A stretch of DNA of 64,000 bases from NCBI GenBank assembly GCA_964016885.1, contig OZ024740.1:424576001-424640000 (forward strand), written 5' to 3'. This document shows positions 5,337-61,503 of this stretch, piece after piece. Origin of the DNA: Eledone cirrhosa (taxonomy: Eukaryota). The translations under genes were made by a program, and so were the position numbers. The notes beneath the pieces are model-generated. The model searched no databases and had not been told where the DNA came from. It saw only the letters and a list, made by a program, of their open reading frames with translations. Each line of letters begins with the position of its first letter. Within the stretch, counting starts at the first letter, position 1.

Positions 5337-5578
5337 CATGGCTTAGTGGTTAGAGCATTGGGCTTGCAATCGAAAGGTTGTGAGTTCAATTCTCAGACTG
5401 GGTGATGTGTTGTTTCCTTGAGCAAGACACTTTATTTCACGTTGTTCCAGTTTACTCAGCTGTAGAAATGAGATGCTAGGACTGGGGTCCCTATCATTAA
5501 ATTACCCAAGACATCTCCAACGAGATATACCTTGGAGGAGGCCAGCTAAACCTGCATAGGTGTGAGCTGTAACAACAA
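5337..5578 (+). mobile_element. tRNA-derived CORE-like SINE
   Basis: A box tggcttagtggt, B box gagttcaattc, core ccttgagcaagacactt, (aac)n tail. Confidence 0.85.
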
Positions 5579-13965: not shown

Positions 13966-14445
13966 ATACAATTACTCAGGTAAAAACCCACAACGTTGAA
14001 CATAATAGAAGAATGTCCACTGTAAGCAAAAATCATCCACCATATACTTCATGCTTAATCAACAAAACTTTCAGACCGTAGCTCGCCTTGCTGAACACAC
14101 AAACCGAAACCGCTTGGTACCGCGGTCGGGGTTTTACACACACACACATATACATGTACATAGAGAAATACACACAACCCAATTGTGTTCCAAATCGTTA
14201 CCAAGATTACCTGACGGTTTGTCTTGTTTTCACTCTTCATTTTCGATTTTTTTTCTTTACACGGACCTTATTTCTGTTTCCCCATTGTGATCCTGTCTCT
14301 ATTTTATATTCCTGAAGACGGGCTTAAGCCCCGACACGTCGAACTTTCTTTCCTCTTTCCATTATAAAGCGGGAAACTAATAAGACTTTTTGTACCTCTG
14401 TTTGTTGTTTCCTTGAACTATAAATATATATATATATATAAATTT

Positions 14446-15185: not shown

Positions 15186-15346
<161 letters not shown>

Positions 15347-15387: not shown

Positions 15388-15416
15388 ATATAACGAATGA
15401 AGTGTGACAAGATACC

Positions 15417-16023
<607 letters not shown>

Positions 16024-16069
16024 ATATATATATATATATATGTATATATATGTATATATATTTTATATA

Positions 16070-26563: not shown

Positions 26564-26637
<74 letters not shown>

Positions 26638-26746
26638 GAAAAAAATGAAAACGAAATTTCATTTCTCACTCTTAGTATGGCACTTACTTAAATGTAAGTA
26701 TGTATGTATACGTACATACATATATGTATACAGACGTACAGTAGCA

Positions 26747-26829
<83 letters not shown>

Positions 26830-27744
26830 GCATACAGGTACACATACATATATGCACGCATCAGTTTAGCCGACGTTTATTATAACGCCGGCCGCTTTGT
26901 TCGTTTGTTTGTCAACAAAGCGAACAGCCTGAATTTATGCCATACGGTGTTAAGGCAACCACGTCACCTTTTTGTTCAACACTGACACAGGAACGATGTA
27001 CTAGTTTCAAACTTGTTAGCTATCATCAGCACCGTTTACCCATCTGCCAGATAGTTGAACGTTCGAAAGTATATACTTTCCTTATGAAAATTAACGGTTG
27101 AGCAGCCTAATTTGCATATTGAGTGAGTTAAATCGGTCAGGCATACCGAAAACGATAAGTTGAAAAAAATGAAAACGAAATTTCATTTCTCACTCTTAGT
27201 ATGGCACTTACTTAAATGTAAGTATGTATGTATACGTACATACATATATGTATACAGACGTACAGTAGCATGCATATATATATATATATATATATACACA
27301 TATGCATACAGGTACACATACATATATGCACGCATCAGTTTAGCCGACGTTTATTATAACGCCGGCCGCTTTGTTCGTTTGTTTGTCAACAAAGCGAACA
27401 GCCTGAATTTATGCCATACGGTGGTAAGGCAACCACGTCACCTTTTTCTTCAACACTGACACAGGAACGATGTACTAGTTTCAAGCTTGTTAGCTATCAT
27501 CAGTACCATTTACCCATCTGCCAGATAGTTGAACGTTCGAAAGTATATACTTTCCTTATGAAAATTAACGGCTGAGCAGCCTAATTTGCATATTGAGTGA
27601 GTTAAATCGGTCAGGCATACCGAAAACGATAAGTTGAAAAAAATGAAAACGAAATTTCATTTCTCACTCTTAGTATGGCACTTACTTAAATGTAAGTATG
27701 TATGTATACGTACATACATATATGTATACAGACGTACAGTGGCA

Positions 27745-27817
<73 letters not shown>

Positions 27818-27820
<3 letters not shown>

Positions 27821-29811
27821 AAGACAAACATAGAATATTCGAAAATATTCTGTATGTTTATAATAAACATTTTGAAGACCCAATCGCTATAGAATAGAAT
27901 ACGTCACGTATTACAATTTGAGATTCTCGATAAAAGCAAGGGAAGTAACCTACGCGTTTCATTCTTATTAGAAATCATCAGGATTACATATCCAATGCTT
28001 TTATCGAGAACGACACAGCTAGAGACTTATAGAATACTTAGCTGTGTACAGGAACTGGTTTGAAAGAGCGGTTGCCGGTCCGGCAGAAATTAGAATTTGG
28101 ATTTAATGCTCTGAAATAGCGATATATATGTGAAGACAAACATAGAATATTCGAAAATATTCTGTATGTTTATAATAAACATTTTGAAGACCCAATCGCT
28201 ATAGAATAGAATACGTCACGTATTACAATTTGAGATTCTCGATAAAAGCAAGGGAAGTAACCTACGCGTTTCATTCTTATTAGAAATCATCAGGATTAAA
28301 TATCCAATGCTTTTATCGAGAACGACACAGCTAGAGACTTATAGAATACTTAGCTGTGTACAGGAACTGGTTTGAAAGAGCGGTAGCCGGTCCGGCAGAA
28401 ATTAGAATTTGGATTTAATGCTCTGAAATAGCGATATATATGTGAAGACAAACATAGAATATTCGAAAATATTCTGTATGTTTATAATAAACATTTTGAA
28501 GACCCAATCGCTATAGAATAGAATACGTCACGTATTACAATTTGAGATTCTCGATAAAAGCAAGGGAAGTAACCTACGCGTTTCATTCTTATTAGAAATC
28601 ATCAGGATTACATATCCAATGCTTTTATCGAGAACGACACAGCTAGAGACTTATAGAATACTTAGCTGTGTACAGGAACTGGTTTGAAAGAGCGGTTGCC
28701 GGTCCGGCAGAAATTAGAATTTGGATTTAATGCTCTGAAATAGCGATATATATGTGAAGACAAACATAGAATATTCGAAAATATTCTGTATGTTTATAAT
28801 AAACATTTTGAAGACCCAATCGCTATAGAATAGAAAACGTCACGTATTACAATTTGAGATTCTCGATAAAAGCAAGGGAAGTAACCTACGCGTTTCATTC
28901 TTATTAGAAATCATCAGGATTAAATATCCACTGCTTTTATCGAGAACGACACAGCTAGAGACTTATAGAATACTTAGCTGTGTACAGGAACTGGTTTGAA
29001 AGAGCGGTAGCCGGTCCGGCAGAAATTAGAATTTGGATTTAATGCTCTGAAATAGCGATATATATGTGAAGACAAACATAGAATATTCGAAAATATTCTG
29101 TATGTTTATAATAAACATTTTGAAGACCCAATCGCTATAGAATAGAATACGTCACGTATTACAATTTGAGATTCTCGATAAAAGCAAGGGAAGTAACCTA
29201 CGCGTTTCATTCTTATTAGAAATCATCAGGATTACATATCCAATGCTTTTATCGAGAACGACACAGCTAGAGACTTATAGAATACTTAGCTGTGTACAGG
29301 AACTGGTTTGAAAGAGCGGTAGCCGGTCCAGCAGAAATTAGAATTTGGATTTAATGCTCTGAAATAGCGATATATATGTGAAGACAAACATAGAATATTC
29401 GAAAATATTCTGTATGTTTATAATAAACATTTTGAAGACCCAATCGCTATAGAATAGAATACGTCACGTATTACAATTTGAGATTCTCGATAAAAGCAAG
29501 GGAAGTAACCTACGCGTTTCATTCTTATTAGAAATCATCAGGATTACATATCCAATGCTTTTATCGAGAACGACACAGCTAGAGACTTATAGAATACTTA
29601 GCTGTGTACAGGAACTGGTTTGAAAGAGCGGTTGCCGGTCCGGCAGAAATTAGAATTTGGATTTAATGCTCTGAAATAGCGATATATATGTGAAGACAAA
29701 CATAGAATATTCGAAAATATTCTGTATGTTTATAATAAACATTTTGAAGACCCAATCGCTATAGAATAGAATACGTCACGTATTACAATTTGAGATTCTC
29801 GATAAAAGCAA
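27818..29811 (-). mobile_element. Tandem array of 312-bp HHR family B monomers (6 full plus 1 partial), retrozyme-like
   Basis: Units start at 27818, 28130, 28442, 28754, 29066, 29378 and 29690. Each full unit carries an HHR on the minus strand. Confidence 0.92.
27945..27987 (-). ncRNA. Minimal type I hammerhead ribozyme (family B), repeated every 312 bp to 29505-29547
   Basis: Minus: gtaatc CTGATGA t-ttct-aata-agaa-t GAAA CGCG TA ggttac. Stem I is extended by ttctcgataaaagca/tgcttttatcgagaa. Confidence 0.88.
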
Positions 29812-30739
29812 TATATATATATACACATATGCATACAGGTACAGATACATATATGCACGCATCAGTTTAGCCGACGTTTATTATAACGCCGGCCGCTTTG
29901 TTCGTTTGTTTGTCAACAAAGCGAACAGCCTGAATTTATGCCATACGGTGTTAAGGCAACCACGTCACCTTTTTGTTCAACACTGACACAGGAACGATGT
30001 ACTAGTTTCAAGCTTGTTAGCTATCATCAGTACCATTTACCCATCTGCCAGATAGTTGAACGTTCGAAAGTATATACTTTCCTTATGAAAATTAACGGCT
30101 GAGCAGCCTAATTTGCATATTGAGTGAGTTAAATCGGTCAGGCATACCGAAAACGATAAGCTGAAAAAAATGAAAACGAAATTTCATTTCTCACTCTTAG
30201 TATGGCACTTACTTAAATGTAAGTATGTATGTATACGTACATACATATATGTATACAGACGTACAGTAGCATGCATATATATATATATATACACATATGC
30301 ATACAGGTACACATACATATATGCACGCATCAGTTTAGACGACGTTTATTATAACGCCGGCCGCTTTGTTCGTTTGTTTGTCAACAAAGCGAACAGCCTG
30401 AATTTATGCCATACGGTGTTAAGGCAACCACGTCACCTTTTTGTTCAACACTGACACAGGAACGATGTACTAGTTTCAAGCTTGTTAGCTATCATCAGCA
30501 TCGTTTACCCATCTGCCAGATAGTTAAACGTTCGAAAGTATATACTTTCCTTATGAAAATTAACGGCTGAGCAGCCTAATTTGCATATTGAGTGAGTTAA
30601 ATCGGTCAGGCATACCGAAAACGATAAGTTGAAAAAAATGAAAACGAAATTTCATTTCTCACTCTTAGTATGGCACTTACTTAAATGTAAGTATGTATGT
30701 ATACGTACATACATATATGTATACAGACGTACAGTAGCA

Positions 30740-30820
<81 letters not shown>

Positions 30821-31439
30821 TGCATACAGGTACACATACATATATGCACGCATCAGTTTAGCCGACGTTTATTATAACGCCGGCCGCTTTGTTCGTTTGT
30901 TTGTCAACAAAGCGAACAGCCTGAATCTATGCCATACAGTGTTAAGGCAACCACGTCACCTTTTTGTTCAACACTGACACAGGAACGATGTACTAGTTTC
31001 AAGCTTGTTAGCTATCATCAGCACCGTTTACCCATCTGCCAGATAGTTGAACGTTCGAAAGTATATACTTTCCTTATGAAAATTAACGGCTGAGCAGCCT
31101 AATTTGCATATTGAGTGAGTTAAATCGGTCAGGCATACCGAAAACGATAAGTTGAAAAAAATGAAAACGAAATTTCATTTCTCACTCTTAGTATGGCACT
31201 TACTTAAATGTAAGTATGTATGTATACGTACATACATATATGTATAGAGGCGTACAGTAGCATGCATATATATATATATATATACACATATGCATACAGG
31301 TACACATACATATATGCACGCATCAGTTTAGCCGACGTTTATTATAACGCCGGCCGCTTTGTTCGTTTGTTTGTCAACAAAGCGAACAGCCTGAATTTAT
31401 GCCATACGGTGTTAAGGCAACCACGTCACCTTTTTTAAT

Positions 31440-31820
31440 TAAGTGCCATACTAAGAGTGAGAAATGAAATTTCGTTTTCATTTTTTTCAACTTATCGTTT
31501 TCGGTATGCCTGACCGATTTAACTCACTCAATATGCAAATTAGGCTGCTCAGCCGTTAATTTTCATAAGGAAAGTATATACTTTCGAACGTTCAACTATC
31601 TGGCAGATGGGTAAACGGTGCTGATGATAGCTAACAAGCTTGAAACTAGTACATCGTTCCTGTGTCAGTGTTGAACAAAAAGGTGACGTGGTTGCCTTAA
31701 CACCGTATGGCATAAATTAAGGCTGTTCGCTTTGTTGACAAACAAACGAACAAAGCGGCCGGCGTTATAATAAACGTCGGCTAAACTGATGCGTGCATAT
31801 ATGTATGTGTACCTGTATGC

Positions 31821-31895
<75 letters not shown>

Positions 31896-32336
31896 TGCTA
31901 CTGTACGTCTGTATACATATATGTATGTACGTATACATACATACTTACATTTAAGTAAGTGCCATACTAATTGTGAGAAATGAAATTACGTTTTCATTTT
32001 TTTCAACTTATCGTTTTCGGTATGCCTGACCGATTTAACTCACTCAATATGCAAATTAGGCTGCTCAGCCGTTAATTTTCATAAGGAAAGTATATACTTT
32101 CGAACGTTCAACTATCTGGCAGATGGGTAAACGGTGCTGATGATAGCTAACAAGCTTGAAACTAGTACATCGTTCCTGTGTCAGTGTTGAACAAAAAGGT
32201 GACGTGGTTGCCTTAACACCGTATGGCATAAATTCAGGCTGTTCGCTTTGTTGACAAACAAACGAACAAAGCGGCCGGCGTTATAATAAACGTCGGCTAA
32301 ACTGATGCGTGCATATATGTATGTGTACCTGTATGC

Positions 32337-32413
<77 letters not shown>

Positions 32414-32469
32414 TCCTACTGTACGTCTGTATACATATATGTATGTACGTATACATACATACTTACATT
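31440..32469 (+). mobile_element. Inverted array (2 units) of HHR family A
   Basis: Reverse complement of the preceding units, with HHRs at 31616-31656 and 32132-32172. Confidence 0.9.
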
Positions 32470-32497
32470 TATATATATATACATATATACATATATG

Positions 32498-41705: not shown

Positions 41706-42279
41706 TCAGGAAGACTTATCCGTAGTTTCTTGTAGAACGTAAGATCTCGTAGAGATTTCTTTCGTTGGGTCAGCTATAATCATTTAATCTCTTTGGACAT
41801 CAGTGAAATATTTATCTCGCTGTTATGCCTGTTGCTATTGTTGTTTAGCCCCTGGTCATACATGGTTGAACAAACAGATCGATGATCAAAAGTGTTTTCG
41901 TTGGGGTTATCTTGTCTTTGTTTAAAGTGTGTAATGTTTTCAGGATTACACACTTTAAACAAAGATGAGATAAACACTATTAGAAACGTCTTTGATCGTA
42001 GGGCTTTATATTGGATGCATATGTCTCTATAAGATATGTGTGTAGCTTGAGGGAGATTTGGCTGCTATTTCTACAACGTCTATTTTATAGATGGTGATTG
42101 GTTTGTTGATGTTATTGTTGTTCAGTGTGAGGTCAGTTGTGATTAAAGCAATCTCTAATAAAAAAGAGGTCCTATCATAACTATAGTGTTTTTCTTATTC
42201 TTTAATCTACTAGAATGCTATATAGAGGGTGTTTGGCTGCTTGTTCTAGCAGATCACCCAGCAAACTTGACGTGTTAGG

Positions 42280-45200
42280 GTGGTTGTAGGTGTGGTTGTT
42301 GTAGTGATGGCGGTGGTTGTAGTTATGGTGGTGATTGTAGTGATGGCGGTGGTGGTTGTAGTGTGGGTGGTAGTTGTTGTAGTGATGGTGGTTGTGGTTG
42401 TAGTGACGGTAGCGGTGGTAGTAGTGTGGGTGGTGGTTGTTGTAGTGATGGTGGTGGTGGTTGTAGTGATGGTGGTGGTGGTTGTAGTGATGGTGGTGGT
42501 TGTTGTAGTGATGGTGGTGGTTGTTGTAGTGATGGTGGTGGTGGTTGTAGTGGTGGTGGTGGTGGTTGTAGTGATGGTGGTGGTTGTTGTAGTGATGGTA
42601 TTGGTGGTTGTAGTGATGGTGGTGGTGGTTGTAGTGATGGTGGTGGTGGTTGTAGTGATGGTGGTGGTGGTTGTAGTGATGGTGGTGGTGGTTGTAGTGA
42701 TGGTGGTGGTGGTGGATGTAGTGATGGTGGTGGTTGTTGTAGTGATGGTGGTGGTTGTTGTAGTGATGGTGGTGGTTGTGGTAGTGATGGTGGTGGTTGT
42801 TGTAGTGGTGGTGGTGGTTGTTGTAGTGATGGTGGTGGTTGTTGTAGTGATGGTGGTGGTTGTTGTAGTGATGGTGGTGGTGGTTGTAGTGATGGTGGTG
42901 GTGGTTGTAGTGATGGTGGTGGTGGTTGTAGTGATGGTGGTGGTGGTTGTAGTGATGGTGGTGGTGGTTGTAGTGGTGGTGGTGGTGGTGGATGTAGTGA
43001 TGGTGGTGGTTGTTGTAGTGATGGTGGTGGTGGTTGTAGTGATGGTGGTGGTTGTTGTAGTGATGGTGGTGGTTGTTGTAGTGATGGTGGTGGTGGTTGT
43101 AGTGGTGGTGGTGGTGGTTGTAGTGATGGTGGTGGTTGTTGTAGTGATGGTATTGGTGGTTGTAGTGATGGTGGTGGTGGTTGTAGTGATGGTGGTGGTG
43201 GTTGTAGTGATGGTGGTGGTTGTTGTAGTGATGGTATTGGTGGTTGTAGTGATGGTGGTGGTGGTTGTAGTGATGGTGGTGGTGGTTGTAGTGATGGTGG
43301 TGGTTGTTGTAGTGATGGTGGTGGTTGTTGTAGTGATGGTGGTGGTGGTTGTAGTGATGGTGGTGGTTGTTGTAGTGATGGTGGTGGTTGTAGTGGTGGT
43401 GGTGGTGGTGGATGTAGTGATGGTGGTGGTTGTTGTAGTGATGGTGGTGGTTGTTGTAGTGATGGTGGTGGTTGTTGTAGTGATGGTGCTGGTGGTTGTA
43501 GTGATGGTGGTGGTGGTTGTAGTGATGGTGGTGGTTGTTGTAGTGGTGGTGGTGGTTGTTGTAGTGATGGTGGTGGTGGTTGTAGTGATGGTGGTTGTGG
43601 TTGTAGTGATGGTGGTGGTGGTGGTGGTTGTAGTGATGGTGGTGGTTGTTGTAGTGATGGTGGTGGTTGTTGTAGTGGTGGTGGTGGTTGTGGTAGTGAT
43701 GGTGGTGGTTGTTGTAGTGATGGTGGTGGTTGTTGTAGTGATGGTGGTGGTTGTTGTAGTGATGGTGGTAGTTGTTGTAGTGGTGGTGGTGGTTGTGGTA
43801 GTGATGGTGGTGGTTGTTGTAGTGATGGTGGTGGTGGTGGTGGTTGTAGTGATGGTGGTGATGGTTGTAGTGATGGTGGTGGTGGTTGTAGTGATGGTGG
43901 TGGTGGTTGTAGTGATGGTGGTGGTGGTTGTAGTGATGGTGGTGGTGGTTGTAGTGATGGTGGTGGTTATTGTAGTGATGGTGGTGGTTGTTGTAGTGAT
44001 GGTGGTGGTTGTTGTAGTGATGGTGGTGGTGGTTGTAGTGGTGGCGGTGGTTGTTGTAGTGGTGGTGGTGGTTGTTGTAGTGATGGTGGTGGTTGTTGTA
44101 GTGGTGGTGGTGGTTGTGGTAGTGATGGTGGTGGTTGTTGTAGTGATGGTGGTGGTTGTTGTAGTGATGGTATTGGTGGTTGTAGTGATGGTGGTGGTTG
44201 TTGTAGTGATGGTGGTGGTTGTTGTAGTGATGGTGGTGGTGGTTGTAGTGATGGTGGTGGTTGTTGTAGTGATGGTGGTGGTTGTAGTGGTGGTGGTGGT
44301 GGTGGATGTAGTGATGGTGGTGGTTGTTGTAGTGATGGTGGTGGTTGTTGTAGTGATGGTGGTGGTTGTTGTAGTGATGGTGCTGGTGGTTGTAGTGATG
44401 GTGGTGGTGGTTGTAGTGATGGTGGTGGTTGTTGTAGTGGTGGTGGTGGTTGTTGTAGTGATGGTGGTGGTGGTTGTAGTGATGGTGGTTGTGGTTGTAG
44501 TGATGGTGGTGGTGGTGGTGGTTGTAGTGATGGTGGTGGTTGTTGTAGTGATGGTGGTGGTTGTTGTAGTGGTGGTGGTGGTTGTGGTAGTGATGGTGGT
44601 GGTTGTTGTAGTGATGGTGGTGGTTGTTGTAGTGATGGTGGTGGTTGTTGTAGTGATGGTGGTAGTTGTTGTAGTGGTGGTGGTGGTTGTGGTAGTGATG
44701 GTGGTGGTTGTTGTAGTGATGGTGGTGGTGGTGGTGGTTGTAGTGATGGTGGTGGTTGTTGTAGTGATGGTGGTGGTGGTTGTAGTGATGGTGGTGGTTG
44801 TTGTAGTGATGGTGGTGGTTGTTGTAGTGGTGGTGGTGGTTGTTGTAGTGATGGTGGTGGTTGCTGTAGTGATGGTGGTGGTTGTTGTAGTGATGGTGGT
44901 GGTGGTTGTAGTGATGGTGGTGGTGGTTGTAGTGATGGTGGTGGTTGTTGTAGTGATGGTGGTGATGGTTGTAGTGATGGTGGTGGTGGTTGTAGTGATG
45001 GTGGTGGTGGTTGTAGTGATGGTGGTGGTGGTTGTAGTGATGGTGGTGGTGGTTGTAGTGATGGTGGTGGTTATTGTAGTGATGGTGGTGGTTGTTGTAG
45101 TGATGGTGGTGGTTGTTGTAGTGATGGTGGTGGTGGTTGTAGTGGTGGCGGTGGTTGTTGTAGTGGTGGTGGTGGTTGTTGTAGTGATGGTGGTGGTTGT

Positions 45201-48200
45201 TGTAGTGGTGGTGGTGGTTGTGGTAGTGATGGTGGTGGTTGTTGTAGTGATGGTGGTGGTTGTTGTAGTGATGGTATTGGTGGTTGTAGTGATGGTGGTG
45301 GTTATTGTAGTAATGGTGGTGGTAGTTGTAGTGATGGTGGTGGTGGTGGTTGTAGTGATGTTATTGGTGGTTGTAGTGATGGTGGTGGTTGTTGTAGTGA
45401 TGGTGGTGGTTGTTGTAGTGATGGTGGTGGTGGTTGTAGTGGTGGTTGTGGTGGTTGTAGTGATGGTGGTGGTGGTTGTAGTGATGGTGGTGGTGGTTGT
45501 AGTGATGGTGGTGGTGGTGGTTGTAGTGATGGTGGTGGTGGTTGTAGTGATGGTGGTGGTGGTTGTAGTGATGGTGGTGGTGGTTGTAGTGATGGTGGTG
45601 GTTATTGTAGTGATGGTGGTGGTGGTTGTAGTGATGGTGGTGGTGGTGGTTGTAGTGATGGTATTGGTGGTTGTAGTGATGGTGGTGGTTGTTGTAGTGA
45701 TGGTGGTGGTTGTTGTAGTGGTGGTTGTAGTGATGGTGGTGGTTGTTGTAGTGATGGTGGTGGTGGTTGTAGTGGTGGTTGTAGTGATGGTGGTGGTGGT
45801 TGTAGTGATGGTGGTGGTGGTTGTAGTGATGGTGGTGGTGGTTGTAGTGATGGTGGTGGTGGTTGTAGTGATGGTGGTGGTGGTTGTAGTGATGGTGGTG
45901 GTGGTTGTAGTGATGGTGGTGGTTATTGTAGTGATGGTGGTGGTGGTTGTAGTGATGGTGGTGGTTGTTGTAGTGATGGTGGTGGTGGTTGTAGTGATGG
46001 TGGTGGTTGTGGTAGTGATGGTGGTGGTTATTGTAGTGATGGTGGTGGTGGTTGTAGTGAGGGTGGTGGTGGTTGTAGTGATGGTGGTGGTGGTTGTAGT
46101 GATGGTGGTGGTGGTTGTAGTGATGGTGGTGGTTATTGTAGTGATGGTGGTGGTGGTTGTAGTGATGGTGGTGGTGGTTGTAGTGATGGTGGTGGTGGTT
46201 GTAGTGATGGTGGTGGTGGTTGTAGTGATGGTGGTGGTGGTTGTAGTGATGGTGGTGGTTATTGTAGTGATGGTGGTGGTGGTTGTAGTGATGGTGGTGG
46301 TGGTTGTAGTGATGGTGGTGGTGGTTGTAGTGATGGTGGTGGTTGTTGTAGTGATGGTGGTGGTGGTTGTAGTGATGGTGGTGGTGGTTGTAGTGATGGT
46401 GGTGGTGGTTGTAGTGATGGTGGTGGTGGTTGTAGTGATGGTGGTGGTGGTTGTAGTGATGGTGGTGGTGGTTGTAGTGATGGTGGTGGTTATTGTAGTG
46501 ATGGTGGTGGTGGTTGTAGTGATGGTGGTGGTGGTTGTAGTGATGGTGGTGGTGGTTGTAGTGATGGTGGTGGTGGCTGTAGTGATGATGGTGGTGGTTG
46601 TAGTGATGGTGGTTGTAGTGGTGGTTGTAGTGATGGTGGTGGTGGTTGTAGTGATGGTGGTGGTGGTTGTAGTGATGGTGGTGGTTGTTGTAGTGATGGT
46701 GGTGGTTGTTGTAGTGATGGTGGTGGTGGTTGTAGTGATGGTGGTGGTGGTTGTAGTGATGGTGGTGGTGGTTGTAGTGATGGTGGTGGTGGTTGTAGTG
46801 ATGGTGGTGGTGGTTGTAATGGTGGTTGTAGTGATGGTGGTGGTGGTTGTAGTGATGGTGGTGGTGGTTGTAGTGATGGTGGTGGTTGTTGTAGTGATAG
46901 TGGTGGTGGTTGTAGTGATGGTGGTGGTGGTTGTAGTGATGGTGGTGGTGGTTGTAGTGATGGTGGTGGTGGTTGTAGTGATGTTGGTGGTGGTTGTAGT
47001 GATGGTGGTGGTGGTTGTAGTGATGGTGGTGGTGGTTGTAGTGATGGTGGTGGTTATTGTAGTGATGGTGGTGGTGGTTGTAGTGATGGTGGTGGTGGTT
47101 GTAGTGATGGTGGTGGTGGTTGTAGTGATGGTGGTGGTGGTTGTAGTGATGGTGGTGGTTATTGTAGTGCTGGTGGTGGTGGTTGTAGTGATGGTGGTGG
47201 TGGTTGTAGTGATGGTGGTGGTGGTTGTAGTGATGGTGGTGGTGGTTGTAGTGATGGTGGTGGTGGTTGTAGTGATGGTGGTGGTGGTTGTAGTGATGGT
47301 GGTGGTTATTGTAGTGATGGTGGTGGTGGTTGTAGTGATGGTGGTGGTGGTTGTAGTGATGGTGGTGGTGGTTGTAGTGATGGTGGTGGTGGTTGTAGTG
47401 ATGGTGGTGGTGGTTATAGTGATGGTGGTGGTGGTTGTAGTGATGGTGGTGGTGGTTGTAGTGGTGGTTGTAGTGATGGTGGTGGTGGTTGTAGTGATGG
47501 TGGTGGTGGTTGTAGTGATGGTGGTGGTTGTTGTAGTGATAGTGGTGGTGGTTGTAGTGATGGTGGTGGTGGTTGTAGTGATGGTGGTGGTGGTTGTAGT
47601 GATGGTGGTGGTGGTTGTAGTGATGGTGGTGGTGGTTGTAGTGATGGTGGTGGTGGTTGTAGTGATGTTGATGGTGGTTGTATTGATGGTGGTGGTTATT
47701 GTAGTGATGGTGGTGGTGGTTGTAGTGATGGTGGTGATGGTTGTAGTGATGGTGGTGGTGGTTGTAGTGATGGTGGTGGTTGTGGTAGTGATGGTGGTGG
47801 TTGTTGTAGTGATGGTGGTGTTTGTTGTAGTGATGGTGGTGGTTGTTGTAGTGATGGTGGTGGCGGTTGTAGTGATGGTGGTGGTGGTTGTTGTGATGGT
47901 GGTGGTGGTTGTAGTGATGGTGGTGGTGGTTGTAGTGATGGTGGTGGTGGTTGTAGTGATGGAGGTGGTTGTTGTAGTGATGGTGGTGGTTGTTGTAGTG
48001 ATGGTGGTGGTGGTTGTAGTGATGGTGGTGGTGGTTGTAGTGATGGTGGTGGTGGTTGTAGTGATGGTGGTGGTGGTTGTAGTGATGGTGGTGGTTGTTG
48101 TAGTGATGGTGGTGGTTGTTGTAGTGATGGTGGTGGTGGTTGTAGTGATGGTGGTGGTTGTTGTAGTGATGGTGGTGGTTATTGTAGTGATGGTGGTGGT

Positions 48201-50272
48201 TATTGTAGTGATGGTGGTGGTGGTTGTAGTGATGGTGGTGGTGGTTGTAGTGATGTTGGTGGTGGTTGTAGTGATGGTGGTGTTTGTTGTAGTGATGGTG
48301 GTGGTGGTTGTAGTGATGGTGGTGGTGGTTGTAGTGATGGTGGTGGTGGTTGTAGTGATGGTGGTGGTTGTTGTAGTGATGGTGGTGGTTATTGTAGTGA
48401 TGGTGGTGGTTATTGTAGTGATGGTGGTGGTGGTGGTGGTTGTAGTGATGGTGGTGGTTGTTGTAGTGATGGTGGTGTTTGTTGTAGTGATGGTGGTGGT
48501 GGTTGTAGTGATGGTGGTGGTGGTTGTAGTGATGGTGGTGGTGGTTGTAGTGATGGTGGTGGTGGTTGTAGTGGTGGTTGTAGTGATGGTGGTGGTGGTT
48601 GTAGTGGTGGTGGTGGTTGTTGTAGTGATGGTGGTGGTGGTTGTAGTGATGGTGGTGGTGGTTGTAGTGATGGTGGTGGTTATTGTAGTGATGGTGGTGG
48701 TTGTTGCAGTGATGGTGGTGGTTATTGTAGTGATGGTGGTGGTTGTTGCAGTGATGGTGGTGGTTGTTGTAGTGATGGTGGTGGTTATTGTAGTGATGGT
48801 GGTGGTTCTTGTAGTGATGGTGGTGGTTATTGTAGTGATGGTGGTGGTTGTTGCAGTGATGGTGGTGGTTGTTGTAGTGATGGTGGTGGTGGTTGTAGTG
48901 GTGGTGGTTATTGTAGTGATGGTGGTGGTTGTTGTAGTGATGGTGGTGGTTGTTGTAGTGATGACGGTGCTGGTTGTAGTGATGGTGGTGTTTGTTGTAG
49001 TGATGGTGGTGGTGGTTGTAGTGATGGTGGTGGTGGTTGTAGTGATGGTGGTGGTTGTGGTAGTGATGGTGGTGGTTGTTGTAGTGATGGTGGTGGTTAT
49101 TGTAGTGATGGTGGTGGTGGTTGTAGTGATGGTGGTGGTGGTTGTAGTGATGGTGGTGGTTGTGGTAGTGATGCTGGTGGTTGTTGTAGTGATGGTGGTG
49201 GTTATTGTAGTGATGGTGGTGGTGGTTGTAGTGATGGTGGTGGTGGTTGTAGTGATGGTGGTGGTTGTTGTAGTGATGGTGGTGGTGGTTGTAGTGATGG
49301 TGGTGGTTGTTGTAGTGATGGTGGTGGTTGTTGTAGTGGTGGTGGTTATTGTAGTGATGGTGGTGGTTGTTGTAGTGATGGTGGTGGTTGTTGTAGTGAT
49401 GGCGGTGCTGGTTGTAGTGATGGTGGTGGTTATTGTAGTGATGGTGGTGGTTATTGTAGTGATGGTGGTGGTGGTTGTAGTGATGGTGGTGGTGGTTGTA
49501 GTGATGGTGGTGGTGGTCGTAGTGATGGTGGTTGGTGTTGTAGTGATGGTGGTGGTGGTTGTAGTGATGGTGGTGGTGGTTGTAGTGATGGTGGTGGTGG
49601 TTGTAGTGATGGTGGTGGTTGTTGTAGTGATGGTGGTGGTGGTTGTAGTGATGGTGGTGGTTGTTGTAGTGATGGTGGTGGTTGTTGTAGTGATGGTGGT
49701 GGTTGTTGTGGTGATGGTGGTGGTGGTTGTAGTGATGGTGGTGGTTGTTGTAGTGATGGTGGTGGTGGTTGTAGTGATGGTGGTGGTGGTTGTAGTGATG
49801 GTGGTGGTTGTTGTAGTGATGGTGGTGGTGGTTGTAGTGATGGTGGTGGTGGTTGTAGTGATGGTGGTGGTGGTTGTAGTGATGGTGGTGGTGGTTGTAG
49901 TGATGGTGGTGGTGGTTGTAGTGATGGTGGTGGTTGTTGTAGTGATGGTGGTGGTTGTTGTAGTGATGGTGGTGGTTGTTGTAGTGATGGTGGTGGTTGT
50001 TGTAGTGATGGTGGTGGTGGTTGTAGTGATGGTGGTGGTTGTTGTAGTGATGGTGGTGGTGGTTGTAGTGATGGTGGTGGTGGTTGTAGTGATGGTGGTG
50101 GTTGTTGTAGTGATGGTGGTGGTGGTTGTAGTGATGGTGGTGGTGGTTGTAGTGATGGTGGTGGTGGTTGTAGTGATGGTGGTGGTGGTTGTAGTGATGG
50201 TGGTGGTGGTTGTAGTGATGGTGGTGGTGGTTGTAGTGATGGTGGTGGTGGTTGTAGTGATGGTGGTGGTTG
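42280..50272. repeat. 8-kb 21-bp minisatellite
   Basis: Unit tgtagtgatggtggtggt(g/t)gt, open in three frames. Confidence 0.95.
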
Positions 50273-50279
50273 TGGGGAT

Positions 50280-50690
50280 AATAATTGTTTCTACATTTGG
50301 CAGAAGTTCAGCAATTTGAAAGGAAGAGTAAAGTCGAATAATTCGACACCAGTACATTACTGGTAATTTATTTTATCGACCCCGTCAGGATGAAAGGCAA
50401 AGCTAACCTTGGGGCGGCATCTGAACTCAGAACGCAAATGGCCGTAATTCTATGCCACAAGCATATTGTTCGACGCTCTACCCATTTTACCAAGCAGCCG
50501 CTCTAATCGTTAAAACTGATTGTTTTTACTTTTTGTACAAGGCTAGTAATTTGAAGGGAAGAGTAAAGTCGAATAAAGGACACCAGAGCGTTACTGGTAC
50601 TTTATTTTACCTACCCCGTAAGGATGGAAGTCTAAGCTAACCTTGGAGGAACTTGAACTGAGAACGGAAAGGGTCATAACTCTATGCCGC
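50280..50690 (-). mobile_element. Two tandem Meta-like SINE copies
   Basis: Reverse-complement cores at ~50355-50435 and ~50590-50665. Confidence 0.78.
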
Positions 50691-50809
50691 ATGGTGATAA
50701 TGATAATAGTTATGGTATCCCTTTATAATGTGTTATTTTCGGTATATTTGGTCGTTATTTCTAGCAGTTAAATGACCATGTAGTGCTTCCCTTATGGCGA
50801 TATAAAATG

Positions 50810-53800
50810 GTGGTGGTAGTGTCGGCTGTTGTGGTAGTGGTAGTGTTGGTGGTTGTGGTAGTGGTAGTGCTGGTGGTTGTGGTGGTGGTAGTGTTGGTTG
50901 TTGTGATAGTGATAATGTTGGTGATTGTGGTAGCGGTAGTGTCGGGGGTTGTGATGGTGGTAGTGTTGGTTATTGTGGTGGTGGTAGTGTCGGCTGTTGA
51001 GGTAGTGGTAGTGTTGGTGGTTGTGGTAGTGGTTGTGTTGGCTGTTGTGGTAGAGGTAGTGTTGGTTGTTGTGGTAGTGGTAGTGTTGGCTGTTGTGGTG
51101 GTGGTAGTGTTGCTGGTTTTGGTGGTGGTAGTGTTGGCTGTTGTGGTAGAGTTGTTGGTTGTGGTAGTGTTAGTGTTGGTTGTTGTGGTGGTGGTAGTGT
51201 TGGTGGTTGTGGTAGTGGTTGTGTTGGTTGTTGTGGTAGTGGTAGTGTTGGTTGTTTTGGTGGTGGTAGTGTTGGTTGTTGTGGTAAAGGTAGTGTTGGC
51301 TGTTGTGGTAGTGGTAGTGTTGGTTGTTGTGGTAGTGTTGGTGGTAGTGGTAGTGGTAGTGTTGGTTGTTATGGTAGTGGTAGTGTTGGTGATTGTGGTA
51401 GTGGTAGTTTTGGTTGTTGTGGTAGTGGTAGTGTTGGCTGTTGTGGTAGCGGTAGTGTTGGCTGTTGTGGTGGTGGTAGTATTTGTTGTTGTGGTAGTGG
51501 TAGTGTTGGCTGTTGTGGTGGTGGTAGTGTTGGTTGTTGTGGTAGTGGTAGTGTTGGTTGTTGTGGGGGTGGTAGTGTTGGCTGTTGTGGTAGTGGTAGA
51601 GTTGGTGGTTGTGGTAGTGGTAGTGTTGGCTGTTGTAGTGGTGGTAGTGTTGGTTGTCGTGGTAGTGGTAATGTTGGTTGTTGTGGTGATGGTAGTGTTG
51701 GCGGTTGTGGTAGTAGTAGTATTGGTTGTTGTGGTGGTGGTAGTATTATTGTGATAGTCGTAGTGTTGGTTGTTGTGGTATTGTTTGTTGTTGTGTGGTG
51801 GTAGTATTGGCTGTTGTGGTAGTGGTTGTGGTTGTGGTAGTGTTGGCTGTTGTGGTAGAGTTGGTGGTTGTGGTAGTGGTAGTGTTGGTTGTTGTGGTGG
51901 TGGTAGTGTTGGTGGTTGTGGTAGTGGTTGAGGTGGTTATTGTGGTAGTGGTAGTGTTGTTTGTTGTGGTGGTGGAAGTGTTGGTTGTTGTGGTACTGGT
52001 AGTGTTGGCTGTTGTGGTAGTGGTAGTGTTGGTTGTTATGGTAGTGGTAGTGTTGGTTGTTGTGGTAGTGGTAGTGTTGGTGGTAGTGGTAGTATTGGTT
52101 GTTGTGGTAGTGGTAGTCTTGGTTTTTGTGGTGGTGGTAGTGTTGGTTGTTGTGGTAGTGGTAGTATTGGCTGTTGTGGTAGTGGTAGTGTTGGCTGTTG
52201 TGGTAGTGGTAGTGTTGGTTGTTATGGTAGTGGTAGTTTTGGCTGTTGTAGTGGTGGTAGTGTTGGTTGTCGTGGTAGTTGTAGTATTGGTTGTTGTGGT
52301 GTGGTAGTATTGGCTATTGTGATAGTGGTAGTGTTGGTTGTTGTGGTGGTGGTAGTATTGGCTGTTGTGGTAGTGGTAGTGTTGGTTATTGTGGTAGTGG
52401 TAGTATTGGTTGTTGTGGTAGTGGTAGTATTGGTTGTTGTGGTGGTGGTAGTGTTCGTTCTTGTGGTACAGGTAGTATTGATTGTTGTGGTAGTGGTATT
52501 GTTGGTTGTTGTGGTAGTGGTAGTGTTGGTTGTTGTCGTAGTCGTAGTGTTGGTTATTGTGGTAGTGGTATTGTTGGTTGTTGTGGTAGTCATAGTGTTG
52601 GTTGTTGTGGTAGTGGTAGTATTGCTTGTTGTGGTAGTGGTAGTGTTGGTGGTTGTGGTAGTGGTAGTGTTGGTGGTAGTGTTGGTTATTGTGGTAGTGG
52701 TAGTGTTGTTTGTTGTGGTGGTGGTAGTGTTGGTTGTTTTTGTGGTGGTAGTGTTGGTTGTTGTGGTGGTGGTAGAGTTGGCTGTTGTGGTGGTGGTAGT
52801 ATTGGTTGTTATGGTAGTGGTAGTGTTGGTTGTTGTGGTGGTGGTAGTGTTGGTTGTTGTGGTAGTGGTATTGTTGGTTGTTGTGGTAGTGGTAGTATTG
52901 GTTGCTGTGGTAGTGGTATTATTTGTTGTTGTGGTAGTGGTAGTGTTGGTTGTTGTGGTAGAGTTGGTGGTTGTGGTAGTGGTAGTGTTGGTTGTTGTGG
53001 TGGTGGTAGCGTTGGTGGTTGTGGTAGTGGTTGTGGTGATTATTGTGGTAGTGGTAGTATTGGTTGTTGTGGTGGTGGTAGTGTTGGTGGTTGTGGTAGT
53101 GGTAGTATTGGTTGTTGTGGTGGTGGTAGTATTCGTTGTTGTGGTAGTGTTGGTGGTTGTGGTAGTGGTATTATTGGTTGTTGTGGTAGTGGTAGTATTG
53201 GTTGTTGTGGTAGTGGTATTGTTGGTTATTGTGGTAGTGGTAGTATTGGTTGTTGTGGTAGTGGTAGTGTTGGTTGTTGTGGTGGTGGTAGTGTTGGTTG
53301 TTGTGATAGTGATAATGTTGGTGATTGTGGTAGCGGTAGTGTCGGGGGTTGTGATGGTGGTAGTGTTGGTTATTGTGGTGGTGGTAGTGTCGGCTGTTGA
53401 GGTAGTGGTAGTGTTGGTGGTTGTGGTAGTGGTTGTGTTGGCTGTTGTGGTAGAGGTAGTGTTGGTTGTTGTGGTAGTGGTAGTGTTGGCTGTTGTGGTG
53501 GTGGTAGTGTTGCTGGTTTTGGTGGTGGTAGTGTTGGCTGTTGTGGTAGAGTTGTTGGTTGTGGTAGTGTTAGTGTTGGTTGTTGTGGTGGTGGTAGTGT
53601 TGGTGGTTGTGGTAGTGGTTGTGTTGGTTGTTGTGGTAGTGGTAGTGTTGGTTGTTTTGGTGGTGGTAGTGTTGGTTGTTGTGGTAAAGGTAGTGTTGGC
53701 TGTTGTGGTAGTGGTAGTGTTGGTTGTTGTGGTAGTGTTGGTGGTAGTGGTAGTGGTAGTGTTGGTTGTTATGGTAGTGGTAGTGTTGGTGATTGTGGTA

Positions 53801-56000
53801 GTGGTAGTTTTGGTTGTTGTGGTAGTGGTAGTGTTGGCTGTTGTGGTAGCGGTAGTGTTGGCTGTTGTGGTGGTGGTAGTATTTGTTGTTGTGGTAGTGG
53901 TAGTGTTGGCTGTTGTGGTGGTGGTAGTGTTGGTTGTTGTGGTAGTGGTAGTGTTGGTTGTTGTGGGGGTGGTAGTGTTGGCTGTTGTGGTAGTGGTAGA
54001 GTTGGTGGTTGTGGTAGTGGTAGTGTTGGCTGTTGTAGTGGTGGTAGTGTTGGTTGTCGTGGTAGTGGTAATGTTGGTTGTTGTGGTGATGGTAGTGTTG
54101 GCGGTTGTGGTAGTAGTAGTATTGGTTGTTGTGGTGGTGGTAGTATTATTGTGATAGTCGTAGTGTTGGTTGTTGTGGTATTGTTTGTTGTTGTGTGGTG
54201 GTAGTATTGGCTGTTGTGGTAGTGGTTGTGGTTGTGGTAGTGTTGGCTGTTGTGGTAGAGTTGGTGGTTGTGGTAGTGGTAGTGTTGGTTGTTGTGGTGG
54301 TGGTAGTGTTGGTGGTTGTGGTAGTGGTTGAGGTGGTTATTGTGGTAGTGGTAGTGTTGTTTGTTGTGGTGGTGGAAGTGTTGGTTGTTGTGGTACTGGT
54401 AGTGTTGGCTGTTGTGGTAGTGGTAGTGTTGGTTGTTATGGTAGTGGTAGTGTTGGTTGTTGTGGTAGTGGTAGTGTTGGTGGTAGTGGTAGTATTGGTT
54501 GTTGTGGTAGTGGTAGTCTTGGTTTTTGTGGTGGTGGTAGTGTTGGTTGTTGTGGTAGTGGTAGTATTGGCTGTTGTGGTAGTGGTAGTGTTGGCTGTTG
54601 TGGTAGTGGTAGTGTTGGTTGTTATGGTAGTGGTAGTTTTGGCTGTTGTAGTGGTGGTAGTGTTGGTTGTCGTGGTAGTTGTAGTATTGGTTGTTGTGGT
54701 GTGGTAGTATTGGCTATTGTGATAGTGGTAGTGTTGGTTGTTGTGGTGGTGGTAGTATTGGCTGTTGTGGTAGTGGTAGTGTTGGTTATTGTGGTAGTGG
54801 TAGTATTGGTTGTTGTGGTAGTGGTAGTATTGGTTGTTGTGGTGGTGGTAGTGTTCGTTCTTGTGGTACAGGTAGTATTGATTGTTGTGGTAGTGGTATT
54901 GTTGGTTGTTGTGGTAGTGGTAGTGTTGGTTGTTGTCGTAGTCGTAGTGTTGGTTATTGTGGTAGTGGTATTGTTGGTTGTTGTGGTAGTCATAGTGTTG
55001 GTTGTTGTGGTAGTGGTAGTATTGCTTGTTGTGGTAGTGGTAGTGTTGGTGGTTGTGGTAGTGGTAGTGTTGGTGGTAGTGTTGGTTATTGTGGTAGTGG
55101 TAGTGTTGTTTGTTGTGGTGGTGGTAGTGTTGGTTGTTTTTGTGGTGGTAGTGTTGGTTGTTGTGGTGGTGGTAGAGTTGGCTGTTGTGGTGGTGGTAGT
55201 ATTGGTTGTTATGGTAGTGGTAGTGTTGGTTGTTGTGGTGGTGGTAGTGTTGGTTGTTGTGGTAGTGGTATTGTTGGTTGTTGTGGTAGTGGTAGTATTG
55301 GTTGCTGTGGTAGTGGTATTATTTGTTGTTGTGGTAGTGGTAGTGTTGGTTGTTGTGGTAGAGTTGGTGGTTGTGGTAGTGGTAGTGTTGGTTGTTGTGG
55401 TGGTGGTAGCGTTGGTGGTTGTGGTAGTGGTTGTGGTGATTATTGTGGTAGTGGTAGTATTGGTTGTTGTGGTGGTGGTAGTGTTGGTGGTTGTGGTAGT
55501 GGTAGTATTGGTTGTTGTGGTGGTGGTAGTATTCGTTGTTGTGGTAGTGTTGGTGGTTGTGGTAGTGGTATTATTGGTTGTTGTGGTAGTGGTAGTATTG
55601 GTTGTTGTGGTAGTGGTATTGTTGGTTATTGTGGTAGTGGTAGTATTGGTTGTTGTGGTAGTGGTAGTGTTGGTTGTTGTGGTGGTGGTAGTGTTGGCTG
55701 TTGTGGTAGTGGTAGTATTGGTGGTTGTGGTAGTATTGGTGGTTGTGGTAGTGGTCGTGTTGGTTGTTGTGGTAGTGGTAGTGTTGGTTGTTGTGGTAGT
55801 GGTAGTATTGGTGGTTGTGGTAGTATTGGTGGTTGTGGTAGTGGTCGTGTTGGTTGTTGTGGTAGTGGTAGTGTTGGTTGTTGTGGTAGTGGTAGTATTG
55901 GTGGTTGTGGTAGTGGTAGTATTGGTGGTTGTGGTAGTGGTAGTATTGGTTGTTGTGGTAGTGGTATTGTTGGTTATTGTGGTAGTCGTAGTGTTGGTGG
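50810..56000. repeat. 24-bp GT-rich minisatellite with an internal 2400-bp duplication
   Basis: Unit gtggtagtggtagtgttggttgtt; ~50876-53297 is repeated at +2400. Confidence 0.95.
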
Positions 56001-56918
56001 TGGTGGTGTTGGTGATCGTGGTAGTGGTTACAGTGGCGGTTTGCTGGTGGTGGTGTTGGTGATGGTGGTGACAGTGGTGGTGGTGGTGGTGGTGGTGACA
56101 GTGGTGGTTGTGGTGGTACAACATTCTAACGGTGGCGTTGGTGATAATGGTAGTAGTGATGGCGGCGGCGGTGGTGTTGGTGATAATGGTAGTAGTGATG
56201 GCGGCGGCGGCGGCTGTAGTGTTGGTTGATGGTTGTGATGATGATATGGGACATGGTGGCGGCGGTGGTGGTGTGTGTGTTATAGTGGCAGTAGTGATAG
56301 CAGCAGCGGCGTCGGGGCTGATGGTTTGATGGTTGTGATGAGATGTCTAGCAGAATGCGTTAAACATCAGCGATATGTCTTATTAGCAAATATGCATGCT
56401 GTGTGCCTCAGCAGGTATTGGAGTCTTTATAACATACGTAACATGCCTTTGTAGGAGGTCTTTTACAACACCGTAGAAAGAGAGAGGGGTGTGTGGGTGT
56501 GGGTGTGTGGGTGTGGGTGTGTGGATGTGAGTGTGTGAGACAGAGGGTGTGTGTGTGTGTGTGCGCGCGAGAGAGAGATAGTGTGTGTGTGTGTGTGTGA
56601 GAGAGAGAGGGTGTGTGTGTGCGTATGTGTGTGTGTGTGTAGTATATGTGTATCAGTGTTTGTGTGTGAATCTGAAAGAAATGAAGAGCATTGTCAGAAA
56701 CACATTTACGAGTTAACCAACAGCTATTATCACATTGCCATACATGCATCGCTAGTTCGATAAATACACCATAGAGGCTTGTACACACACACACACACAC
56801 ACAGACTCTGACACACAGACTCTGACACACACACAAACTCACACATATGCACACGTTAATATTCAAAGAAATACACACTCATGTACATACGTGTGTGTAT
56901 CAGATTTAGAGAGATAAT

Positions 56919-61262: not shown

Positions 61263-61503
61263 CAGCTGACACCTATGCAGGTTTAGCTGGCCTCCTCCAA
61301 GGTATATCTCGTTGGAGGTGTCTTGGGTGATTTAATGATAGAGACTCCAGTCCTATCATCTCATTTCTACAGCTGAGTAAACTGGAGCAACGTGAAATAA
61401 AGTGTCTTGCTCAAGGAAACAACACATCACCCGGTCTGAGAATTGAACTCACAACCTTTCGATTGCAAGCCCAATGCTCTAACCACTAAGCCATGTGCCT
61501 TCA
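61263..61503 (-). mobile_element. CORE-like SINE with (AAC)n tail
   Basis: Reverse complement of the 5337 family. Confidence 0.9.

Follow-up and report, generated by a model that had tools for sequence, protein, structure and literature searches.

A 312-bp tandem array nested within a second retrozyme

The 64,000-nt window of the Eledone cirrhosa genome analyzed here contains an array of 312-bp tandem units, each full unit carrying a minus-strand hammerhead ribozyme, that lies inside a larger array of a second retrozyme (Table 1). TRF places the repeat at 27810-29811 with a period of 312, 6.4 copies, 99% matches and no indels. A previous reading made from the sequence alone (the sequence-only reading) had described six tandem monomers with an exact 312-bp period; the period is indeed exact and there are six full units, but these are 99% alike rather than identical, and a further 122 bp accompany them. 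Units 1, 3 and 6 are the same, units 2, 4 and 5 differ by two, four and two positions respectively, and at unit positions 170 and 256 the array is slightly mosaic. The tandem 312-bp units and the GC content of 0.35 (over 28001-30000) both fall within the range of retrozymes, which have units of approximately 150-450 bp and less than 50% GC. The same reading had seen no ORF, and in a circularized unit the longest ATG-started frame is just 34 aa, with stops in all six frames. The ORF for reverse transcriptase (RT) and GIY-YIG of an autonomous Penelope-like element (PLE) is absent from the 312-bp unit.

Table 1. Coordinates of the array, its ribozyme, its ends and its host.
Feature	Position in window	Strand	Remarks
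312-bp retrozyme array, one-armed insertion	27818..29811	- (hammerhead RNA sense)	6 full units plus 122 bp
Type I hammerhead of unit 1	27945..27987	-	Core 27981-27951; six copies, every 312 bp
15-bp stem I extension	27924..28010 (27996-28010 with 27924-27938)	-	Compensatory changes in sister families
Outer (3') end, located at the fixed start site A of reverse transcription	27810..27826	-	Site placed by the ends seen in relatives
35-nt stretch from start site B (unit position ~278) to A	28095..28129	-	
Inner end, 5'-truncated (unit position 122) and abutting (TA)6 of host array	29800..29822	-	
(TA)35 target tract; it makes up the left portion of the ~470-bp array's split spacer	27748..27817	.	
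Host: two-armed array of second retrozyme, unit ~470 bp	26631..32471	.	Type I hammerhead, variable (TA)n spacers

The array interrupts a (TA)n spacer of its host, leaving 70 bp of the tract to the left and 12 bp to the right, and at the outer end an internal (AT)4 of the unit merges with the target (TA)n. This copy is a single arm with an A end only, and the inverted second copy is absent; the 35-nt segment between start sites B and A, which forms a PLE-type 'tail' at one end of two-armed relatives, is therefore internal here. The host hammerhead, with a U.U in stem II and the palindrome ACUAGU, is built like that of the 312-bp unit, and its cores lie at 27029, 27503, 30030, 30498 and 31021 on the minus strand and at 31621 and 32137 on the plus strand, with the inversion near 31435. 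The ~470-bp retrozyme is also present at 15416-16025; its own two ends are approximately 58 nt apart, and it supplies targets for nested insertions.

Several other features of the window were noted. Isolated hammerhead-like cores at 14312(+), 20552(-), 22601(+), 22772(+), 63876(-) and 33370(+) are probably the ends of other PLE families, and two near-identical partial tRNA matches (5337-5400 and 61436-61493) are probably the heads of a tRNA-derived SINE. A 14-kb GT-rich array with 21-bp and 6-bp periods and extreme strand skew occupies 42279-56117. Another short family inserted in (TA)n is found near 15186 and in the flanks of three other loci (L110, L029 and L043), and its ~80-nt tail resembles that of a Hydra-type PLE (20/1000 shuffles).

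The hammerhead and its predicted folding

The minus-strand core, CUGAUGA...GAAACGCGUA, is present in all six full units, starting at 27981, 28293, 28605, 28917, 29229 and 29541, which agrees with the earlier description of a type I hammerhead with a 15-bp stem I extension in every unit. Cleavage is predicted to occur after GUA, between 27951 and 27950, recurring every 312 bp. Stem I is 6 bp, shortened to 5 bp in units 2 and 4, and continues through an internal loop into an extension of 15-16 bp; stem II pairs over 3 bp on a U.U mismatch and has a 6-nt loop, and helix III is the palindrome ACGCGU. The additional hairpins named in the sequence-only reading are present. Its label of a 'minimal' hammerhead was considered and rejected: helix III and loop 3 are absent from the minimal (PLE-type) form, whereas here helix III is present, and the 6-bp helix I, the 3-bp helix II with U.U and the palindromic ACGCGU are those of the canonical metazoan type I hammerhead as it is defined in the available text of PMC4209133, where this form is described as working as a dimer.

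The monomer, folded from cut to cut, reaches -74.8 kcal/mol (z = -4.4) and none of 100 shuffles is as stable, confirming that it is highly structured. Folded alone, the active hammerhead is 10 kcal/mol less stable than the minimum. In the dimer, the double hammerhead (-112.8 kcal/mol) is close to the minimum free energy (MFE) of -113.5 kcal/mol, and two single hammerheads reach -94.2 kcal/mol. Because the double hammerhead lies near the MFE and the lone one is poorly formed, multimers are predicted to cut and the monomer circle to persist, and these modeled energies favor the dimer dependence proposed earlier. A hammerhead profile search, put forward as a check in the sequence-only reading, finds no Rfam hammerhead in the window at gathering score, and the sole match below that threshold is a weak HH9 at 27931-27996(-) with 20.6 bits (E = 0.035).

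A dispersed family with two-armed insertions

Searching the 3.0-Gb genome identifies the array as one insertion of a young dispersed family, with 612 occurrences of the exact hammerhead core of the window variant (control 0), and the 312-bp family is scattered over many chromosomes. A sister subfamily with units of 310/311 bp, approximately 95% identical, is present in at least 15,309 units (counted as exact 23-mer copies), and its exact end junctions number 1,208 for one type, a count that internal variants partly inflate, and 1,041 for the other. In public sequencing data, no RNA run was listed as containing the sequence; three runs of unrecorded kind contain it and point to the sister subfamily, with no bearing on expression.

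We surveyed 66 insertions of the window variant, with one segmental duplicate and one sister-subfamily fragment dropped. Fifty-three of these are two-armed, with the arms placed back to back and the RNA 5' ends meeting inside; 109 of 118 arms have (TA)n at the outer end. Because the ends sit in (TA)n, any target-site duplication is unreadable. The outer ends cluster within the unit at either site A (unit 305-9) or site B (272-281), the latter approximately 35 nt further 3'. Forty-seven insertions have one end of each kind (A+B), one is B+B, none is A+A, five are two-armed with one odd end, and 13 are one-armed, seven of them ending at A (including the window copy) and six at B. An unbiased subset, the 35 loci listed on contig C1, has 23 A+B, nine one-armed and three odd insertions.

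For the sister subfamily, 80 stretches were picked for their lack of an exact partner junction, a choice that should disfavor A+B. All 61 of the fully seen two-armed insertions are nonetheless A+B; besides these there are ten insertions with an arm that extends past the stretch, seven one-armed and four unclassified. Together, 108 of 109 classifiable two-armed insertions are A+B (47/48 for the window variant and 61/61 for the sister). The two ends of one insertion thus almost always use different start sites, which is an addition to the known PLE signature. The sequence-only reading mentions neither these paired A and B ends nor the family size and the nesting in the ~470-bp array. One sister insertion (L284) has captured between its arms, at 1299-1570, a 272-bp GC-rich sequence.

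Links to Penelope-like elements and candidate helpers

Insertions of PLEs are reported to carry an inverted 5'-truncated copy and a tail of 30-40 bp at one end, and to prefer (TA)n (PMC8557442); two RT start sites bound the tail, and cutting and extension by the enzyme take place on both strands (PMC11167929). Tested for this signature, the retrozyme insertions have a one-end tail of ~35 nt in addition to the inverted copies (53/66 loci) and (TA)n ends (109/118) described above, and the autonomous PLEs of this genome have a two-end pattern like theirs. Mobilization by PLEs, suggested in the sequence-only reading, is thus supported by the PLE-type ends of the relatives, with their A+B pairing and (TA)n location.

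Two young, active full-length autonomous PLEs in this genome are candidate helpers. The first was assigned to the Hydra type by the motifs given in PMC8557442, having RWR, DKT, CxCX5C, plus GIY-YIG at the C terminus, in a 758-aa open frame. It is present in at least 150 copies at 96-100%, its ends lie 22 and 91 nt past the hammerhead cut, and its tail is approximately 69 nt. It is very active (L170, 496-2772, and L073): many of its 758-aa frames are intact, its 3' region is long and rich in microsatellites, and its pLTR contains a canonical hammerhead. The second, of Neptune/Nematis type (L232, 1952-5674), is also very active and has a 1240-aa frame; both of its start sites precede the same six letters, which are found likewise after site A of the 312-bp unit.

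The helper comparison covered these two types, and no extended homology (pLTR) of the retrozyme to either of the two PLE families was found. The 312-bp unit and the Hydra-type PLE have a 17-nt hammerhead stretch in common and no more, and their tails differ. Similarity to the Neptune/Nematis-type tail is weak (13/1000 shuffles; 358/1000 for the sister family). One locus (L086, 1199-2492) contains a retrozyme A-arm fused to a Neptune/Nematis-type B-arm with no (TA)n between them, an arrangement that fits the A+B rule. A second chimera of this kind was not found in 160 other retrozyme loci or in 79 stretches, some overlapping, around the Neptune/Nematis-type PLE, and because the two families often lie in the same (TA)n tracts, a deletion between neighbors could explain L086.

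Variation among units and the nature of the template

To compare haplotypes we used 211 full units of the window variant at 60 loci, and a sister set of 74 of 95 loci with at least three units each. For the window variant, units of one arm diverge by 0.70%, those of opposite arms at one locus by 0.56% and those of different loci by 1.41%, and in 33 of 34 loci an arm is closer to its own opposite arm than to other loci. In the sister set, 596 of 694 units carry the majority haplotype of their locus; there are 32 haplotypes, 23 of them seen once, and 51 of 57 loci have two identical arms, as against a frequency of 0.089 for identity between two random loci. Sixteen sister loci have a haplotype that is unique in the sample and yet identical in both arms, reaching 16 of 16 units. 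For a new variant to become fixed throughout an array, a bottleneck of a single monomer followed by repeated copying is needed, and since 258 passes over the cut site contain no indel, a ligated circle is a better fit than a cut linear monomer with repeated jumps.

A second haplotype is present in two or more units at five of the 74 sister loci, and unit positions 170 and 256, which look like hot spots, vary within five and nine loci respectively. Mosaic loci count against a single-monomer template, unless they arise from error hot spots or later conversion. The variation at 170 and 256 recurs on different haplotype backgrounds and could reflect RT error hot spots, RNA modification or conversion. 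The inner breakpoints do not fall at the cut site significantly more often than expected (4/119, p = 0.07; sister set 2/129), so they give no genomic trace of cleavage. Inner ends are in excess at unit positions 182-190 (13/119), which was found after looking and is probably a hairpin effect.

We think it probable that the array is a young non-autonomous retrotransposon, a non-LTR retrozyme, whose multimeric transcript self-cleaves to 312-nt monomers that are likely circularized and likely copied round by the RT/endonuclease of a PLE. The multimer is predicted to cleave through paired hammerheads, and the monomers would presumably circularize, the circle being stable since a lone hammerhead forms poorly. 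A PLE enzyme would then cut both strands of a (TA)n tract, and both DNA ends would prime on a single RNA, with site A used by one of them and site B by the other. Each cDNA would roll for a variable number of turns before the two are joined at random inner points, and extension of one end only would give a one-armed array such as the window copy.

More specifically, the insertions may be a record of coupled twin rolling-circle target-primed reverse transcription, with A and B starts on a single circular RNA that is cleaved as a dimer and stable as a monomer, a proposal to which we give even odds. If true, it would explain the one-step birth of animal retrozyme arrays, as well as the inverted copy of PLEs and the presence of a tail at only one of their ends. 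On the same proposal, the circle population would be a variable swarm under ribozyme selection and retrozymes with internal (TA)n would nest in each other; here too we see the case for and against as balanced.

The same element and PLE enzyme could instead use an uncut linear read-through multimer as template, with circles, if any, being by-products. In vitro, a PLE used unprocessed RNA, which was its main substrate, and needed no hammerhead (PMC11167929). The mosaicism of the window array and of the five sister loci suits a linear multimer, as does the lack of a breakpoint pile-up at the cut site, and a homogeneous multimer would yield identical arms in any single event. However, copying such a template can neither make arrays longer nor bring a new variant to fixation in all units, and haplotypes unique in the sample are nonetheless fixed across both arms, up to 16 units. 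Variants shared solely by matched units of both arms are also missing from the sister set (0 of 8,428 site pairs at nine loci). The 312 set gave 30 matched-unit rows, nearly all of them artefacts with one or two other units to compare, with one to three that look genuine, compared with 79 discordant pairs. We therefore consider the linear template unlikely.

It is less likely still, and in our view quite improbable, that short PLE-made insertions of a unit or a dimer were expanded later in place by unequal crossing-over or conversion, in the manner of a satellite. Local amplification of retrozyme tandems has been suggested (10.64898/2026.07.22.740005), and we see a 23-unit locus (L045) with recurring variants typical of local exchange and a duplicated pair (L088/L089) that differs by whole units. 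Very young sister loci, however, already have many units in both inverted arms and hardly any divergence, with most units showing the locus majority haplotype, and at most loci both arms would need to have grown independently.

Sister families and possible selection on the ribozyme

Related families with units of approximately 320 bp match the 312-bp scaffold along its whole length, and 425 motif copies are present besides the window's own variant. Among these relatives are older sister retrozyme families (L113, L118, L131, L133 and L136) with ~320-bp units, a U3-A8 core and a longer helix III. We examined covariation in 16 hand-picked sequences from the family and its sisters, with a mean column identity of 65%, and excluded helices I and III because the alignment is offset there. 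Fifteen of the 20 tested pairs change on both sides, including the core pair C3-G8, which becomes U3-A8, a core variant that is already known (PMC4209133), and 96.8% of cells pair. None of 500 shuffles reaches the observed value for cells paired, cells changed on both sides or covariation score, although the sequences share kinship and this count is therefore no probability; slid controls drop to 36-51% paired. The helices of the 312-bp hammerhead thus covary across sister families, and this covariation supports the retrozyme identity given in the sequence-only reading.

The core is intact in 73 of 74 sister-subfamily loci, and core variants occur at the free core position, in loop 2 and at the base of stem II. 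That the motif is a chance resemblance or dead relic in an ordinary tandem repeat, as Rfam scores under the gathering threshold might suggest, is scarcely credible given this conservation and the compensatory changes that keep the core across families.

Comparison with known retrozymes and Penelope-like elements

The 312-bp element has every retrozyme feature that can be tested on sequence, as these are set out in the available texts of PMC7229834, 10.64898/2026.07.22.740005 and PMC7761336; among them, a complete hammerhead in two or more consecutive units (here six of six) defines an 'active' retrozyme. It is a known kind of element, a non-LTR retrozyme, in an undescribed form. Our literature search found no description of the 312-bp family or of two-armed retrozyme insertions; supplements, repeat databases and subscription journals may hold relatives. 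Mobilization by PLEs and rolling reverse transcription were proposed earlier, with the partner and mechanism left open (PMC7761336; 10.64898/2026.07.22.740005; PMC7229834), and the origin of the tandem and inverted structures of PLEs has been said to need study (PMC8557442).

The family offers thousands of very young insertions with fixed start sites, a near-strict one-A-one-B rule and clonal arms, and with candidate helpers in the same genome, both rolling-circle and coupled two-end models can be tested using the existing in vitro PLE assay. A compact RNA directing multi-copy insertion into (TA)n is also of interest for RNA-templated genome writing.

The closest retrozymes in kind are those of corals, mussels and axolotl (Cervera and de la Pena 2020, PMC7229834), which are alike in their tandem units of 150-450 bp, low GC, lack of an ORF, single canonical type I hammerhead per unit, and co-occurrence with PLEs. 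The two axolotl ribozymes also match the 312-bp unit: their helix III is palindromic and weak, and stem II has a U.U at its base. They differ in being arranged as direct tandems, with large target duplications where present, and the available text of that report describes no two-armed inversion, pair of fixed start sites, 35-nt tail or (TA)n targeting. Expression and cleavage were shown for those retrozymes, whereas the 312-bp family is known here from its DNA. In vertebrates (Li, Clavereau, Pollet 2026, 10.64898/2026.07.22.740005), the same definition of 'active' is used and a link to PLEs is proposed; for the Xenopus retrozymes this link comes from co-occurrence and pLTR homology, and here it comes from the anatomy of the insertions. 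Eight of nine Xenopus retrozyme dimers failed to cleave, according to the same source.

The EN+ PLEs Hydra, Neptune/Nematis and Naiad (Craig et al. 2021, PMC8557442; Frangieh et al. 2024, PMC11167929) resemble the 312-bp family, as far as the available texts describe these elements: one copy is inverted and 5'-truncated, only one end has a tail (30-40 bp), (TA)n is preferred as target, and a hammerhead lies upstream of the two RT start sites, which are internal. In contrast to them, the 312-bp family is without an RT/endonuclease ORF, its hammerhead is of the canonical type, and its arms are composed of many identical short units.
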